NCBI GenBank assembly: GCA_963843455.1
Contig: CAWJKE010000010.1
Span: 71,442-135,441, forward strand
From: an uncultured Actinomycetota bacterium
GTDB lineage: Bacteria > Actinomycetota > Thermoleophilia > RBG-16-64-13
Direction: 5' to 3'
Length of the DNA: 64,000 bases
Under the pieces are notes generated by a model, which worked only from the letters and a program-made list of their open reading frames with translations, had not been told where the DNA came from and searched no databases. Positions 31,411 through 36,681 of the stretch are shown here, piece after piece. How positions within the stretch are numbered: position 1 is the stretch's first letter; each line of letters opens with the position of its first letter. The translations under genes and the position numbers were made by a program.

Positions 31411-32304
31411 ATGGAGCTAGACCAACTCAGATCGTTCGTCGCGGTCGCCGAAGTGCGCAGCTTCACGCGCGCGGCGTCCCTCGCCCACCTCACCCAGCCC
31501 GCCATCAGCAGACAGATCGCCCGTTTGGAGGGGGAACTCGGGGTGAGGCTGTTCGAGCGCTATGGCCGCCACGTGGAATGCACTCCGGACGGCAAACTGC
31601 TCCTTCCTCTGGCCAAAGTGATCGTCGCCAGGGCGGACGATGCGGTTCGCATGATGCGCGAGCATGCAGGCGCGCTATCGAGCAGGGTGAGCATCGGCTC
31701 GACAGGCACTGTCTTCGCGCACCTGCTCTCGCCGATCCTGGCCTCCTTCATCAAGATCTATCCCAAGATCCACCTGGACCTCATCGAGCGCGACGACACT
31801 CTGCTCGAAGAAGGGGTGTTCAACGGGGAACTGGATTGCGCCATCGTTACCGCTTGGGGATCGTCACGGGCCGCGGCCACGCATCTCTTGACCGAAGAAA
31901 TACTGCTCGTGATCCGCCGAGACCACCGGGCCGCGGGCCAGCCTTCGGTGGCGCTCGCCGAGCTTGCCGACGAGTCATTCCTCTTCCCCGGCCATTCGCT
32001 CAATACCGCGAACCTGCTGATGGACGCCTGCCGGCGTGCCGGTTTCGAGCCAAAGGTGCCCTATCGGGCCAACTATCTGGAACTCTCCAAGGCCCTGGTG
32101 CGACAGGGGCTGGGGGTCGCGCTGCTGCCTCGGATGTTCGTACTTCCGGAGACCATGGACGACCTCGTGGCGCTCCCGCTCGCGGAGAACCTCACCCGGG
32201 ATCTGGACCTGATCTACTCCAATGAGCGACCTCTGTCCGTGGCGGCCCGCTCGCTTGCGCTGCACATCAAAGCGAGCCTCACATCAGGGGATGCGCCCGC
32301 CTAG
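31411..32304 (+). CDS. LysR family transcriptional regulator
   Basis: MELDQLRSFVAVAEVRSFTRAA...TQPAISRQIARLEGELG; divergent from the flavoprotein-dehydratase operon. Confidence 0.93.
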   Translation: MELDQLRSFVAVAEVRSFTRAASLAHLTQPAISRQIARLEGELGVRLFERYGRHVECTPDGKLLLPLAKVIVARADDAVRMMREHAGALSSRVSIGSTGTVFAHLLSPILASFIKIYPKIHLDLIERDDTLLEEGVFNGELDCAIVTAWGSSRAAATHLLTEEILLVIRRDHRAAGQPSVALAELADESFLFPGHSLNTANLLMDACRRAGFEPKVPYRANYLELSKALVRQGLGVALLPRMFVLPETMDDLVALPLAENLTRDLDLIYSNERPLSVAARSLALHIKASLTSGDAPA

Positions 32305-33120
32305 CTCGCGGTAGATTCCGGGCAGCAGGTTCCTCAGGTTCGTGTACTCCCTGACATTATGCTCGGCCAGTCCCTGGATGGCCTGCACAGGCACCCTCAC
32401 GCCGTGCGGCAGCATCAGCACCGGCTTCTTGTCGATCAAGGTGTACCCCATCCAGAAGCGGGTACGGAATTCCACCCCGCCCGGGATCTCCCGGATGAAA
32501 TGGCACATGATGGCCGGCGCCCGGATGGTCCAGGGCTTGGCGCCCACCGGCATGTCGAGGCCGTGGCCACCATACATGGCCGCGACGTTGGGGGGATGGA
32601 AGCGGTCCATATCGAACCCCAACTCAGCCGGATGGCAGAAGAATATGAAGATGTCCTCCGCCCCCGTGCCCACGTCCTCCACCACGTGGTCGGTCCGCCC
32701 GTAGATCTTCTCCTTGATGGAGACGTTCGGGTCGAGAACCTTCTTGCGATCTTTCTCGCTGATGGAGATGCCGAAATGCCCCGGCGGATACCAGATGCCG
32801 TAGTGCATACCGGCCAGGCTGTGCCAGGCGAACCACCAGTCGAGCATGTCGACGGTGACTCCGGGCATCTTGTTGTTCACGCAGATATAGCCGGCGCCGT
32901 TGGGCAGGCTGCACCAGCCGGTCTCGACCTCCATGTAGCCGGGGTCCAGCAGGCGGTTGATGTCCTCGGGATAGAGAGCCTTGGCCGGGTCCATCGGCCG
33001 GTCGGGATGCACCAGTCCGAGCAGCACCGGGTCCGGATCGTCAACCGGGCGGTAGTACCAGGATGAGTAGGGTTTCGCCTTCTCCTCGGCGGTCAGTTCT
33101 CGGATCTTCGCTTCGGCCAT
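32284..33120 (-). CDS. PhlG / phloretin hydrolase (Phy)-family C-C hydrolase
   Basis: LLDPGY..ETGWC, MPGVTVDMLDWWFAWH, YGIWYPPGH, HVVED, FRTRFWMG, LAEHNVREY (Zn ligands H, E, HxxxE). Confidence 0.85.
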   Translation of the reverse strand: MAEAKIRELTAEEKAKPYSSWYYRPVDDPDPVLLGLVHPDRPMDPAKALYPEDINRLLDPGYMEVETGWCSLPNGAGYICVNNKMPGVTVDMLDWWFAWHSLAGMHYGIWYPPGHFGISISEKDRKKVLDPNVSIKEKIYGRTDHVVEDVGTGAEDIFIFFCHPAELGFDMDRFHPPNVAAMYGGHGLDMPVGAKPWTIRAPAIMCHFIREIPGGVEFRTRFWMGYTLIDKKPVLMLPHGVRVPVQAIQGLAEHNVREYTNLRNLLPGIYRELGGRIP

Positions 33121-33143
33121 GGGTCACCTCCTCGCCAGCCGAC

Positions 33144-33926
33144 TCACGGCAGGTAGTAGCGGGTGTCGCGCTTGAACTCGTCCGTGGGCCGCTCGAGCAA
33201 GAAGCTGCTCACGAAATCGACCCCCGGCTTGAAGAACGGGAACTTGTCGGTGGTCTCGGGGAAGAACGGGTCGGTGGCCCACTCGGGCAGCGTGTACGTG
33301 GGCGGGTCGTCGATGACCGCGTTGCGCCACGCCGCGAAGCTGTCGTACCAAAGCTCGGTCACCCTGTCCCATTGCACGAGCTGCATCTCGTCCGGCGGGG
33401 TAGCGTCCGGATGCCACATGCCGGGAAGCGGTACCGGAGGTTTGACCGCCGGATAGCTGAAGAAGCGGCGAAGACCGGGCTGCTTCATCACCTCGGGCGC
33501 GTGGACGTTCGCGTACCAATCTTCCCCCTCGTGGAGGCGCACGCCCAGCGGGTAGCGGAAGATCTGATACCAACGGATGCAGGCCCTGTCAGTGGCGAAG
33601 CCGTCCCACCCAAGGAAGTCGTGGTCGGGCTGCGCAGGCGTCGAACAGGCCACGATGGGATTCCACACCGGCGCCGGCGTGAAGCAGTAGGCGCCGCGCG
33701 GGCCGGCCTGCGGTACTTCCCGCCAATACGTCTCCGTCACGCGCCAGTTGTAGAAACCGTACTCTTGGGCGTCGGGCGGTGCGGGCAGGGCGGCGAAACT
33801 CTCATGCCGCTCTAGCCAGGGTCCGTAGCGCCGCGAGATCTCGGAAGAGTGCTCTCGGTAATACCATCTTTCCATCTCGGCGATGTCGTCGAGCGGAAGA
33901 TCCATCATCACTATCGTTCGTATCAT
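33144..33926 (-). CDS. Bacterial chalcone isomerase-like protein (Eubacterium ramulus CHI-type, double ferredoxin-like fold)
   Basis: Colinear motifs as I recall E. ramulus CHI: RWYYREH, PPDAQEYG, VTETYW, YPLGV..EGEDW, DRVTELWY, PEWA..FPFFKP. Sits between two Phy-family genes. Confidence 0.7.
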   Translation of the reverse strand: MIRTIVMMDLPLDDIAEMERWYYREHSSEISRRYGPWLERHESFAALPAPPDAQEYGFYNWRVTETYWREVPQAGPRGAYCFTPAPVWNPIVACSTPAQPDHDFLGWDGFATDRACIRWYQIFRYPLGVRLHEGEDWYANVHAPEVMKQPGLRRFFSYPAVKPPVPLPGMWHPDATPPDEMQLVQWDRVTELWYDSFAAWRNAVIDDPPTYTLPEWATDPFFPETTDKFPFFKPGVDFVSSFLLERPTDEFKRDTRYYLP

Positions 33927-33935
33927 CTCCGGCTC

Positions 33936-35667: not shown

Positions 35668-35696
35668 CGAACACCTCCTACTGTCGGGTCAGCGAC

Positions 35697-35723
35697 AACA
35701 CTATAGGACTATATTCTAGTGTT
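35697..35723. promoter_or_regulatory. Inverted repeat, candidate operator of the EthD-phy-chi-phy operon
   Basis: AACACTA-N13-TAGTGTT in an AT-rich patch just upstream of the operon start. Confidence 0.45.
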
Positions 35724-35742
35724 ATTCAGTCTAGAGTACCAG

Positions 35743-36681
35743 TCAGGACACGGCGTTCGGCGGCATCGGGAGCGGAGCCTCGGCGAATCCCGCCACGGTG
35801 CCCGCGTAGCGCTCGATCTCGGCCCGCAGGTCGAGGCGCCCCGAGTATAAGGCCTGGACGGCTAGGAACATGCAAAGGGTCGTCCAGAGCACGTCACTCC
35901 GAGAGTAGCGGTCGTCCCAGGACGCCCTCATAACTACGTTCTCCACCCCCCCCAGCAGTCCGTAGGCCATGAGCTCGTCCGAGGCAGGCAACGTCGTGCC
36001 ACCCTGTTGCCGCAGCGCGCTCAGGTCGTCCAGGGTGTCCTGGGTCATGTCCTTGTACGAACGCTCCACAGCCCGGCGCAGCGCGTCGTCCTCGTGTAGG
36101 GCCTCCGACCGCACCAGCGACATGAGATCGGGGCTGAGCATCTGCACGCCCAGGTAGCCGTGCACGCGGGCGAGATCCCGGGCCGCCGGATCGGGCTCGT
36201 CCGCCAGCCGGCCCTCAAGAAAGCCGCGCATCCACCCCACGAACACCCCGAACGCTTCGACGAACAGCTCCTGCTTGGAGGGAAAATGGCCGTAGAAGAC
36301 CGGCGGTGTTATCCCCACCTCTTTGATGATGTCGGCCACCCGGGTGCGTTTGTACCCCGTGCGCACGAACAGCCGGGCGGCGGCTGTGAGGATAGCCTGG
36401 CGGGTCTGCTCGTTCTGCTCTGCGACCAGATCGACGTCTGCCGCTCGGGCGGCGATGATCCTAGGCGCCAGCCGCTCCTTGACTGTCCGCAGCGGCAGGC
36501 CCTGGTCCTTCAAACGGGTGATGTCGCCCAAAAGAGCGACGTGGTGTTCGGTGTAGATGGCCCGGCTGGCCGCGGCTTTTTGCGCGGTCGGGAGCAGCCC
36601 CTCGCGCACGTAGTAGTAGATGGTGCTGCGCGGGACTCCCGAGGTTGCTTCGAGTTCATTGATGGTCAGAGACTGCATCAT
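35743..36681 (-). CDS. MerR-HTH / TetR fusion transcriptional regulator
   Basis: LTINELEATSGVPRSTIYYYVREGLL (MerR HTH), then TRQAILTAAARLF..GY..T.VADI..VGITPPVFYGHFPSK (TetR HTH). Confidence 0.85.
   Translation of the reverse strand: MMQSLTINELEATSGVPRSTIYYYVREGLLPTAQKAAASRAIYTEHHVALLGDITRLKDQGLPLRTVKERLAPRIIAARAADVDLVAEQNEQTRQAILTAAARLFVRTGYKRTRVADIIKEVGITPPVFYGHFPSKQELFVEAFGVFVGWMRGFLEGRLADEPDPAARDLARVHGYLGVQMLSPDLMSLVRSEALHEDDALRRAVERSYKDMTQDTLDDLSALRQQGGTTLPASDELMAYGLLGGVENVVMRASWDDRYSRSDVLWTTLCMFLAVQALYSGRLDLRAEIERYAGTVAGFAEAPLPMPPNAVS

Follow-up and report, generated by a model that had tools for sequence, protein, structure and literature searches.

Lid-less chalcone isomerase-like and double-EthD proteins coupled to phloretin hydrolase paralogs in a candidate flavonoid-catabolic operon of an uncultured actinobacterium

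What chemistry would be carried out by an operon that couples two paralogs of phloretin hydrolase to a chalcone isomerase-like protein and a double-EthD protein? We examined this question in a 64,000-nt stretch of DNA (the window) on contig CAWJKE010000010.1 from the genome of an uncultured Actinomycetota bacterium (Thermoleophilia; RBG-16-64-13; GCA_963843455.1), where five minus-strand genes at positions 32284–36681 encode a regulator, a protein with two EthD domains (EthD2), a chalcone isomerase (CHI)-like protein (CHIL) and two members of the 2,4-diacetylphloroglucinol (DAPG)/phloretin hydrolase family (PhlG1 and PhlG2). Anaerobic breakdown of flavonoids and tannin-derived phenols governs how carbon turns over in soils and wetlands and what becomes of dietary polyphenols, and the characterised enzymes of the flavonoid pathway come from two gut Firmicutes. 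The locus points to two further families, a lid-less clade of CHI relatives and the double-EthD proteins, both genetically coupled to phloretin hydrolase paralogs in Actinomycetota, Acidobacteriota (including the cultivated Holophaga foetida), Desulfobacteraceae and others. The host is an uncultured anaerobic soil or sediment actinobacterium, in which the operon most likely releases phloroglucinol from plant flavonoid-type compounds. The genes of the operon are as follows:

32284–33120, minus strand: PhlG1, an intact 278-residue DAPG/phloretin hydrolase paralog (Pfam DAPG_hydrolase, 1.6e-72)
33144–33926, minus strand: CHIL, 260 residues (Pfam Chalcone_N, 2.2e-9; 3zph, E 7.6e-11; fold match)
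33936–34849, minus strand: PhlG2, a DAPG/phloretin hydrolase paralog, frameshifted as assembled (DAPG_hydrolase, 9.9e-56)
34876–35667, minus strand: EthD2, 263 residues with two EthD domains (Pfam EthD, 1.7e-13, in two stretches)
35743–36681, minus strand: MerR–TetR fusion regulator (Pfam MerR_1 at residues 7–72, 1.9e-14; TetR_N at residues 98–143, 1.6e-19)

In the order EthD2, PhlG2, CHIL and PhlG1, the four enzyme genes are separated by 26, 9 and 23 nt. An initial annotation, made from the DNA letters, had described four tightly packed minus-strand genes with a MerR–TetR regulator, and the coordinates, intergenic gaps and Pfam matches agree with that description.

CHIL within the chalcone isomerase superfamily

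CHIL is a homolog of Eubacterium ramulus CHI and a member of the CHI superfamily by sequence and fold. The protein matches Pfam Chalcone_N at 38.1 bits (cut-off 25), with a weak EthD match on its second domain, and a phmmer search of the Protein Data Bank (PDB) returned E. ramulus CHI entries alone (3zph, E 7.6e-11) through two collinear stretches that align CHIL residues 3–76 with CHI residues 9–82 and residues 89–235 with 133–255. An AlphaFold2 model of CHIL was built from 32 family members (alignment A1), with a predicted local distance difference test (pLDDT) score of 84.3 and a predicted template modelling (pTM) score of 0.83. In a Foldseek search of this model against the PDB, ranks 1–10 and the next row shown are all E. 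ramulus CHI chains (E ~3e-17 to 1e-16, template modelling (TM) score 0.69–0.75, ~22% identity), and the first other fold in the list follows at E 1.3e-5 and TM score 0.35. Like E. ramulus CHI (PDB 3zph, 4c9s and 4d06; Pfam PF18232), CHIL consists of two ferredoxin-like domains and carries the catalytic His33 and the polarising Asp36 of CHI as H26 and E29, both invariant in alignment A1; in CHI, Asp36 polarises His33 via a water molecule (PMC9694015). The initial annotation had proposed this relationship from the motifs RWYYREH, PPxxxxYG, TExxW, PxGVxxxEGExW, ELWY and PxWA..FPFxKP and from the position of the catalytic histidine; the alignment shows every one of these motifs in CHIL, in the same order as along the E. 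ramulus CHI chain, and places H26 on His33, and the structural comparison of 33144–33926 leads to the same enzyme. Its expectation that the protein would probably be called hypothetical holds for most named homologs, which are labelled 'hypothetical protein', and fails for a few JGI records labelled 'chalcone isomerase'.

CHIL differs from E. ramulus CHI in the residues that surround the substrate. CHI residues 83–132 are matched by 12 CHIL residues (77–88), ~38 fewer, a gap that the initial annotation does not mention, and the lost stretch holds the lid (106–130) together with Gln101, Glu91, Phe93 and Arg125, while CHIL has Thr at the position of CHI His73 and Gln at that of Asp79. The 4′-hydroxyl of the flavonoid B ring is held by CHI Asp79 and Gln101 (PMC11572103), and the loss of both contacts thus means a remodelled pocket in CHIL. 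When E. ramulus CHI is deprived of its lid, the resulting delta-lid variant is still active, at a five-fold reduced level (PMC9694015), and loss of the lid in CHIL thus does not exclude CHI-type chemistry.

The CHI superfamily is small, with 310 proteins at E ≤ 0.001 when 1.84 billion cluster representatives were searched with a profile. A maximum-likelihood tree, built quickly from 102 non-redundant rows (122 collected, reduced at 85% identity, 225–330 residues kept), places CHIL in clade A (34 rows; Shimodaira–Hasegawa-like approximate likelihood-ratio test (SH-aLRT) support 100). Clade B (19 rows) holds a paralog of the window genome on contig C7 together with proteins from Holophagaceae, Desulfobacteraceae and a Lachnospiraceae isolate, and clade C (15 rows) includes another paralog of the window genome on contig C4. 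The catalytic His is kept in 100 of the 102 rows, with Glu or Asp three residues on, and R118, W119, E191, W193, W200 and W216 are near-universal across the superfamily. The lid-bearing segment measures 30–34 residues in 53 of 53 rows of clades A and B and 50–68 residues in 12 of the 15 rows of the canonical clade C. The 279-residue contig C4 protein has the lid and aligns with E. ramulus CHI along its entire length (4d06, E 7.9e-50), and its gene directly adjoins that of a flavone reductase ortholog (7d38, E 4.5e-70; 6954–7793 and 7828–8832 on the 9.8-kb contig, locus L011), and CHIL is therefore not "the" CHI of this genome. By sequence, CHIL is a member of the lid-less clade and not a canonical CHI: it stands in a separate, well-supported clade from the genome's own canonical CHI and pairs with PhlG-type hydrolases rather than standing with a flavone reductase. 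The initial reading of the 260-residue protein as the organism's E. ramulus-type CHI is thus superseded, with the separate 279-residue gene as the ortholog.

The clade B paralog on contig C7 (L010:9482–10231; 249 residues, 40% identity) lies behind MFS transporter, DUF4125 and DUF4037 genes, and an MFS–CHIL pairing occurs again in loci L079 and L084.

These comparisons bear on a simpler explanation along the lines of the initial annotation, in which CHIL is a CHI isozyme converting flavanone to chalcone, the reductase is encoded elsewhere, the two phloretin hydrolases differ in specificity and EthD2 is an accessory. We regard this as unlikely. CHIL does share the fold and the catalytic His/acid pair of CHI, the delta-lid variant of CHI is still active, and candidate reductases exist in the form of about 12 OYE loci elsewhere in the genome and a VprA-like FAD ene-reductase gene 1 kb away. 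However, a lid-bearing canonical CHI beside flavone reductase is already present in the genome, neither of the B-ring contacts, Asp79 and Gln101, is retained in CHIL, and the conservation of EthD2 and its coupling to PhlG2 are too strong for an incidental role. Neighbourhood counts, made here and below over 80 loci around CHIL relatives in named genomes, further show CHIL and canonical CHI together in six loci (side by side in L038, L051, L068 and L073, both present in L070 and L081), which argues that the role of CHIL is probably complementary and non-redundant.

Hydrolases, EthD2 and conserved linkage

PhlG1 spans the Pfam DAPG_hydrolase profile (PF18089; 244.2 bits, positions 5–223 of 223), and its nearest PDB entries are the M. 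abscessus phloretin hydrolase 5xe5 (5.3e-38) and then PhlG 3hwp (3.5e-29). An intact PhlG2 ortholog finds the same two structures in the same order (2.1e-32 and 2.9e-26), in keeping with the assignment of both hydrolases to the PhlG/Phy group in the initial annotation. PhlG1 residues H115, E148, H254 and E258 fall on the corresponding His, Glu and His-x3-Glu columns of PhlG, which we take to be its zinc ligands, and the four columns are conserved in the PhlG1 and PhlG2 classes, in the PhlG3 class of related loci and in a contig C6 paralog from the window genome, which contains four DAPG_hydrolase loci in all. The paralog classes occur two to three per locus and share 47–50% identity with each other, and PhlG2-type proteins carry an extra N-terminal stretch of ~35 residues and an ENCDCG motif. 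PhlG1 shares its full-length domain and the four putative ligand positions with Phy (E. ramulus; M. abscessus 5xe5) and PhlG (3hwp), whereas the coupling of each window paralog to a barrel protein and the extension and ENCDCG motif of PhlG2 set the window hydrolases apart.

EthD2 matches Pfam EthD (PF07110) in two stretches at 51.9 bits (cut-off 22). Its homologs number 273, and the best 120 of these are 66–96% identical and all carry EthD; the EthD2 alignment (A2) contains 85 invariant columns, many of them polar. A search of the PDB found no sequence match to EthD2, and its matches in the ESM Atlas were 'EthD domain-containing protein' clusters only. Foldseek with an AlphaFold2 model of EthD2 retrieved CTB10, E. 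ramulus CHI over both domains (TM score 0.43–0.45), methylmuconolactone methylisomerase (MLMI) and olivetolic acid cyclase (OAC). 4-Methylmuconolactone methylisomerase, CTB10 and OAC are cofactor-less acid–base enzymes that act on lactones or polyketide aromatics. EthD2 resembles these EthD or dimeric alpha/beta-barrel enzymes in its Pfam domains and Foldseek matches but differs from them in fusing two EthD domains within a 263-residue chain and in always having a PhlG2-type gene directly behind it; any role that we assign to EthD2 in the pathway is guesswork.

The linkage among these families is conserved. A survey of gene neighbourhoods in related metagenome-assembled genomes (MAGs), proposed with the initial annotation, finds the window gene order in 11 of the 80 loci (L014–L021, L023, L034 and L078; Actinomycetota or Gaiellales MAGs by title) and a rearranged linkage in 11 more (L024–L033 and L035; all but one titled Thermoleophilia), where the order is CHIL–PhlG1–EthD2–PhlG2. 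Eight of these latter 11 loci have a third hydrolase gene (PhlG3) upstream of CHIL, mostly directly adjacent, and most PhlG3-bearing loci have a FAD_binding_2/Succ_DH_flav_C flavoprotein gene further upstream. A PhlG2-type gene directly follows EthD2 in 23 of 23 loci with EthD2. Desulfobacteraceae locus L047 reads EthD2–PhlG2–flavodoxin–FMN_red–CHIL, and Holophaga foetida DSM 6591, with seven DAPG_hydrolase matches and a clade B CHI-like gene in its genome, encodes two EthD2 copies (66% and 62% identity; L115/L124 and L116/L122), each directly followed by a DAPG_hydrolase gene. MerR–TetR orthologs lie upstream of the cluster in relatives, where an EamA transporter gene is also kept upstream, and distant CHIL genes are mostly without PhlG neighbours.

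Flavoproteins of the FAD_binding_2 plus Succ_DH_flav_C type (~530–600 residues) stand directly beside PhlG-type genes, among them short forms of 207–218 residues, at L013:7800–10440, L022:3306–5854 and L068:3284–5086 and upstream of PhlG3 in L024–L035, and are possible redox partners of the hydrolases. An 853-residue frame in L031 that joins the flavoprotein to PhlG3 was counted as two genes that no stop codon separates and was not used. A 406-residue protein (P0341) with a partial DAPG_hydrolase domain followed by EthD was likewise not used as a Rosetta-stone fusion; its domains come in the order in which adjacent genes stand in the Thermoleophilia arrangement, and it is therefore probably a miscalled or frameshifted gene.

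As assembled, PhlG2 changes reading frame at one site:

34082–34100, minus strand: PhlG2 frameshift site; the frame switches between 34100 and 34082, and the coding strand has A where relatives have AA at 34092/34093

PhlG2 runs in frame from an ATG at 34849 to ~34094, and its homologous C-terminus continues in another frame to a TAG at 33936. The DAPG_hydrolase profile matches at positions 5–174 of 223 in the first frame (189.2 bits) and 183–223 in another, and tblastn of PhlG1 against the region aligns residues 9–226 in one frame (47% identity) and 232–274 in another (60% identity). Because the His-x3-Glu pair (HNVKE) comes after the frame switch, PhlG2 as assembled is without two of the four ligand positions; its His and Glu are in frame, and HNVKE is intact in orthologs. 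The initial claim that both hydrolases keep the zinc ligands (H, E, HxxxE) accordingly stands for PhlG1 and falls for PhlG2 as encoded, in which HxxxE is out of frame. PhlG2 orthologs read through the site in a single frame in 11 of 11 loci with the same gene order, with the sequence RFNESG at this point in L014, and contigs of related strains (~93–95% identical; runs X1 and X4) have an additional T after 34092. No run containing the window strain over the frameshift site was found: none exceeded 17% of sampled words, none of those listed was an RNA run, and the near-identical 151-nt contigs of run X2 miss the site.

If the frameshift were real, the operon would be decaying and the module partly or wholly non-functional in the window genome, which we judge improbable. 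Decay would account for the removal of two PhlG2 zinc ligands, for two more frameshifts in the neighbouring FAD_binding_2 gene and for the patchy distribution of the operon: among 60 relatives, a CHIL ortholog (E ≤ 1e-90) is encoded by 10 of the 36 genomes that belong to the same family and by none of the 24 from other families of the class. The same 10 of 36 family genomes mark the operon as accessory. Against decay, EthD2, CHIL, PhlG1 and the regulator are intact and 83–96% identical to their orthologs, the change of AA to A in PhlG2 and the shifts at or beside G-runs in the FAD_binding_2 gene are typical assembly indel patterns, and several related MAG loci have scattered frame breaks in different genes. 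An assembly indel is much the more likely origin of the PhlG2 frameshift than a real pseudogene.

Polyphenol context and proposed function

By its gene content, the genome provides the setting of an anaerobic polyphenol degrader. The CHI–flavone reductase locus on contig C4, likely the organism's core flavone locus, also contains a URO-D-like gene, ETF, an Fe-S/CCG oxidoreductase, an acyl-CoA dehydrogenase and a LysR gene. Two phloroglucinol-pathway-like clusters (L112, C7:256000–270000; L113, C6:162000–178000) encode BKACE, cupin, SDR, 3-hydroxyacyl-CoA dehydrogenase and cyclase proteins, each beside a molybdopterin oxidoreductase with an N-terminus that we take to be reminiscent of pyrogallol–phloroglucinol transhydroxylase. 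Of the OYE loci of the genome, the nearest lies ~33 kb from the operon, and Pfam searches of all five operon genes uphold the initial observation that none is in the operon itself. Relative to the FLR–CHI–EnoR/Fcr–PHY pathway of Flavonifractor plautii and E. ramulus, the window genome has FLR and CHI orthologs, PHY-like hydrolases and a phloroglucinol-pathway-like set, but the window operon is without a reductase and brings in two proteins from outside the described pathway, the lid-less CHI paralog and the double-EthD protein, and the known hosts are gut Firmicutes whereas the window host belongs to an environmental Actinomycetota lineage, as judged from the titles of the closest loci.

Lid-less CHI relatives stand near polyphenol genes in other genomes as well. 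CHIL adjoins a flavone-reductase-like FMN_red gene in 4 of the 80 loci (L047, L051, L068 and L086), and in L085, from a Lachnospiraceae isolate, the CHIL relative precedes VOC, HADH, BKACE, cupin, SDR and cyclase genes; an HADH–BKACE–cupin–SDR–cyclase type set is the phloroglucinol pathway gene set (PMC10470551). Of the 80 loci, 9 contain two or more out of five families of phloroglucinol-pathway type, compared with 15 of 1452 equal-size windows of the window's genome; for three or more families the figures are 5 of 80 and 13 of 1452. This enrichment is suggestive only: the loci are not independent of one another, and one genome serves as the whole background. McGivern et al. reported MAGs expressing CHI, FCR and PHY in anoxic wetland soil (PMC8084988), and two clade B carriers match MAGs of that study by record title, L080 (Holophaga) and L083 (Sporomusales CTSoil_082 of the CTSoil_80–82 set). 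The statement on CHI and FCR in that paper names CTSoil_80 and 81 and not CTSoil_082 (PMC8084988). Environmental 'CHI' calls may already include lid-less proteins, and annotation of polyphenol genes in MAGs, which now labels any such homolog 'CHI', could improve.

We favour, with somewhat more confidence than doubt, a conserved accessory catabolic operon under its own regulation, whose enzymes open and hydrolyse flavonoid-derived phloroglucinol-type aryl ketones. This reading draws on homology, fold, catalytic residues, linkage that survives rearrangement, polyphenol loci elsewhere and the presence of the rest of the pathway in the genome, and from it we infer the following chemistry, step order and substrates. 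The operon would comprise two modules of a barrel protein and a C–C hydrolase, EthD2–PhlG2 and CHIL–PhlG1. Acid–base catalysis by the cofactor-less alpha/beta-barrel enzymes (His26/Glu29 in CHIL) would act on a flavonoid-type substrate, opening or isomerising its oxygen heterocycle or a tautomer, and thereby expose a 2,4,6-trihydroxyphenyl ketone, and the presumably zinc-dependent PhlG/Phy-type hydrolases would cut the aryl–carbonyl C–C bond in a retro-Claisen/retro-Friedel–Crafts reaction. The phloroglucinol released would enter the reductive phloroglucinol pathway, whose genes lie elsewhere in the genome, and the other product would be an aromatic acid. Because CHIL coexists with or adjoins canonical CHI, has lost the B-ring contacts and has its own hydrolase, it would act on a heterocycle or tautomer other than that used by canonical CHI. 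As a conjecture, its step could lie in the auronol branch of flavonol degradation; a table in a 2024 review gives no enzyme for cleavage of the auronols (alphitonin, maesopsin) formed from flavonols (PMC11572103).

A further-reaching proposal, which we hold to be a shade less probable still than a CHI isozyme, is that the lid-less CHI clade and the double-EthD proteins are two kinds of cofactor-less ring-opening isomerase with dedicated PhlG-type hydrolases, forming a reductase-independent route from flavonoid to phloroglucinol, for example through direct chalcone hydrolysis or auronol cleavage. Searches of the main texts of papers found no description of lid-less CHI-like proteins or of an EthD/PhlG pairing.

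Several observations weigh against a flavonoid-catabolic role. The operon is without an ene-reductase, while characterised Phy acts on reduced dihydrochalcone. Most of the named substrate-contacting residues of CHI are missing or replaced in CHIL, and its substrate may therefore not be a 4′-hydroxyflavanone. PhlG1 reaches 102.7 bits against a cut-off of 600 for the NCBIfam PhlG equivalog NF047887, so that the window hydrolases are not PhlG orthologs, and PhlG2 is frameshifted in the window assembly. The EthD2 model is of low confidence (pLDDT 65.8), and homology between EthD2 and CHIL was rejected at the sequence level (hhalign of A2 against A1, probability 0.6%), with a low-confidence fold resemblance remaining. 

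The hydrolase family also invites a reading of the operon as a detoxification or resistance module against acylphloroglucinol antibiotics of microbial or plant origin, such as DAPG, in which the hydrolases deacylate the toxin and the MerR–TetR sensor and EamA exporter respond. Membership of the hydrolases in the DAPG_hydrolase family, the TetR- and MerR-type drug-sensor domains of the regulator and the EamA gene kept upstream in relatives would all suit such a module. We nonetheless consider it very improbable: phloretin hydrolase, not PhlG, is the nearest match of both hydrolases, which score far below the PhlG equivalog cut-off, DAPG deacylation offers no role for a CHI-family partner, and the genome context of phloroglucinol clusters, flavone reductase and CHI is catabolic. 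With the accessory catabolic operon as the preferred reading, the locus has a realistic chance of hiding new enzyme functions. Assigning functions to the lid-less CHI and double-EthD families could fill open steps of flavonol and auronol cleavage, and both families could yield cofactor-free biocatalysts.

Regulation and neighbouring genes

Two further features flank the enzyme genes:

35701–35736, minus strand: promoter- or operator-like element upstream of EthD2 (CTCTAGACT at 35736–35728 and AGTCCTATAG at 35710–35701, an imperfect inverted repeat)
31411–32304, plus strand: LysR regulator (Pfam HTH_1 and LysR_substrate)

The start of the MerR–TetR regulator was placed at MMQSLT (36681), and the open reading frame stays open to a GTG at 36762; the fusion protein is probably the sensor of the substrate. 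AGTCCTATAG (35701–35710) lies in the AT-rich spacer upstream of EthD2 and is invariant in 7 of 7 aligned loci, and together with CTCTAGACT it would form a putative promoter- or operator-like element. A promoter scan of the locus found no sigma-70-like site, and a search for inverted repeats with arms of at least 10 nt gave nothing useful. Four terminator-like sites were found against 2.2 expected, on the plus strand only and none on the coding strand of the operon.

The LysR gene is convergent with the operon, with overlapping 3′ ends, and divergent from the FAD_binding_2 gene, and it therefore probably serves the latter. It is kept downstream of PhlG1 in L014, L015, L017–L021, L034 and L078 and is probably context outside the operon.

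Two tandem 'cyclase' genes (PF04199) are located farther away in the window at 17264–18881 on the minus strand; they belong to the family of dihydrophloroglucinol cyclohydrolase, which has eight such loci in the genome.

The FAD_binding_2 gene at 29940–31202 (minus strand, with pieces up to ~31290 and down to ~29885) has the vinyl phenol reductase VprA as its best NCBIfam match (1.7e-85, below cut-off). Compared with the L021 ortholog it is split over three frames, and both breaks are at or beside G-runs and therefore look like assembly indels. The gene was rejected as a conserved partner of the operon, since among close relatives it occurs in L021 only. Downstream of it, two HGD-D family genes occupy 27262–29849 on the minus strand, the better of which matches the NCBIfam 'double-cubane-cluster-containing anaerobic reductase' (2.8e-54, below cut-off), and the HGD-D genes and the VprA-like gene may constitute a LysR-controlled reductive operon for an aromatic substrate.

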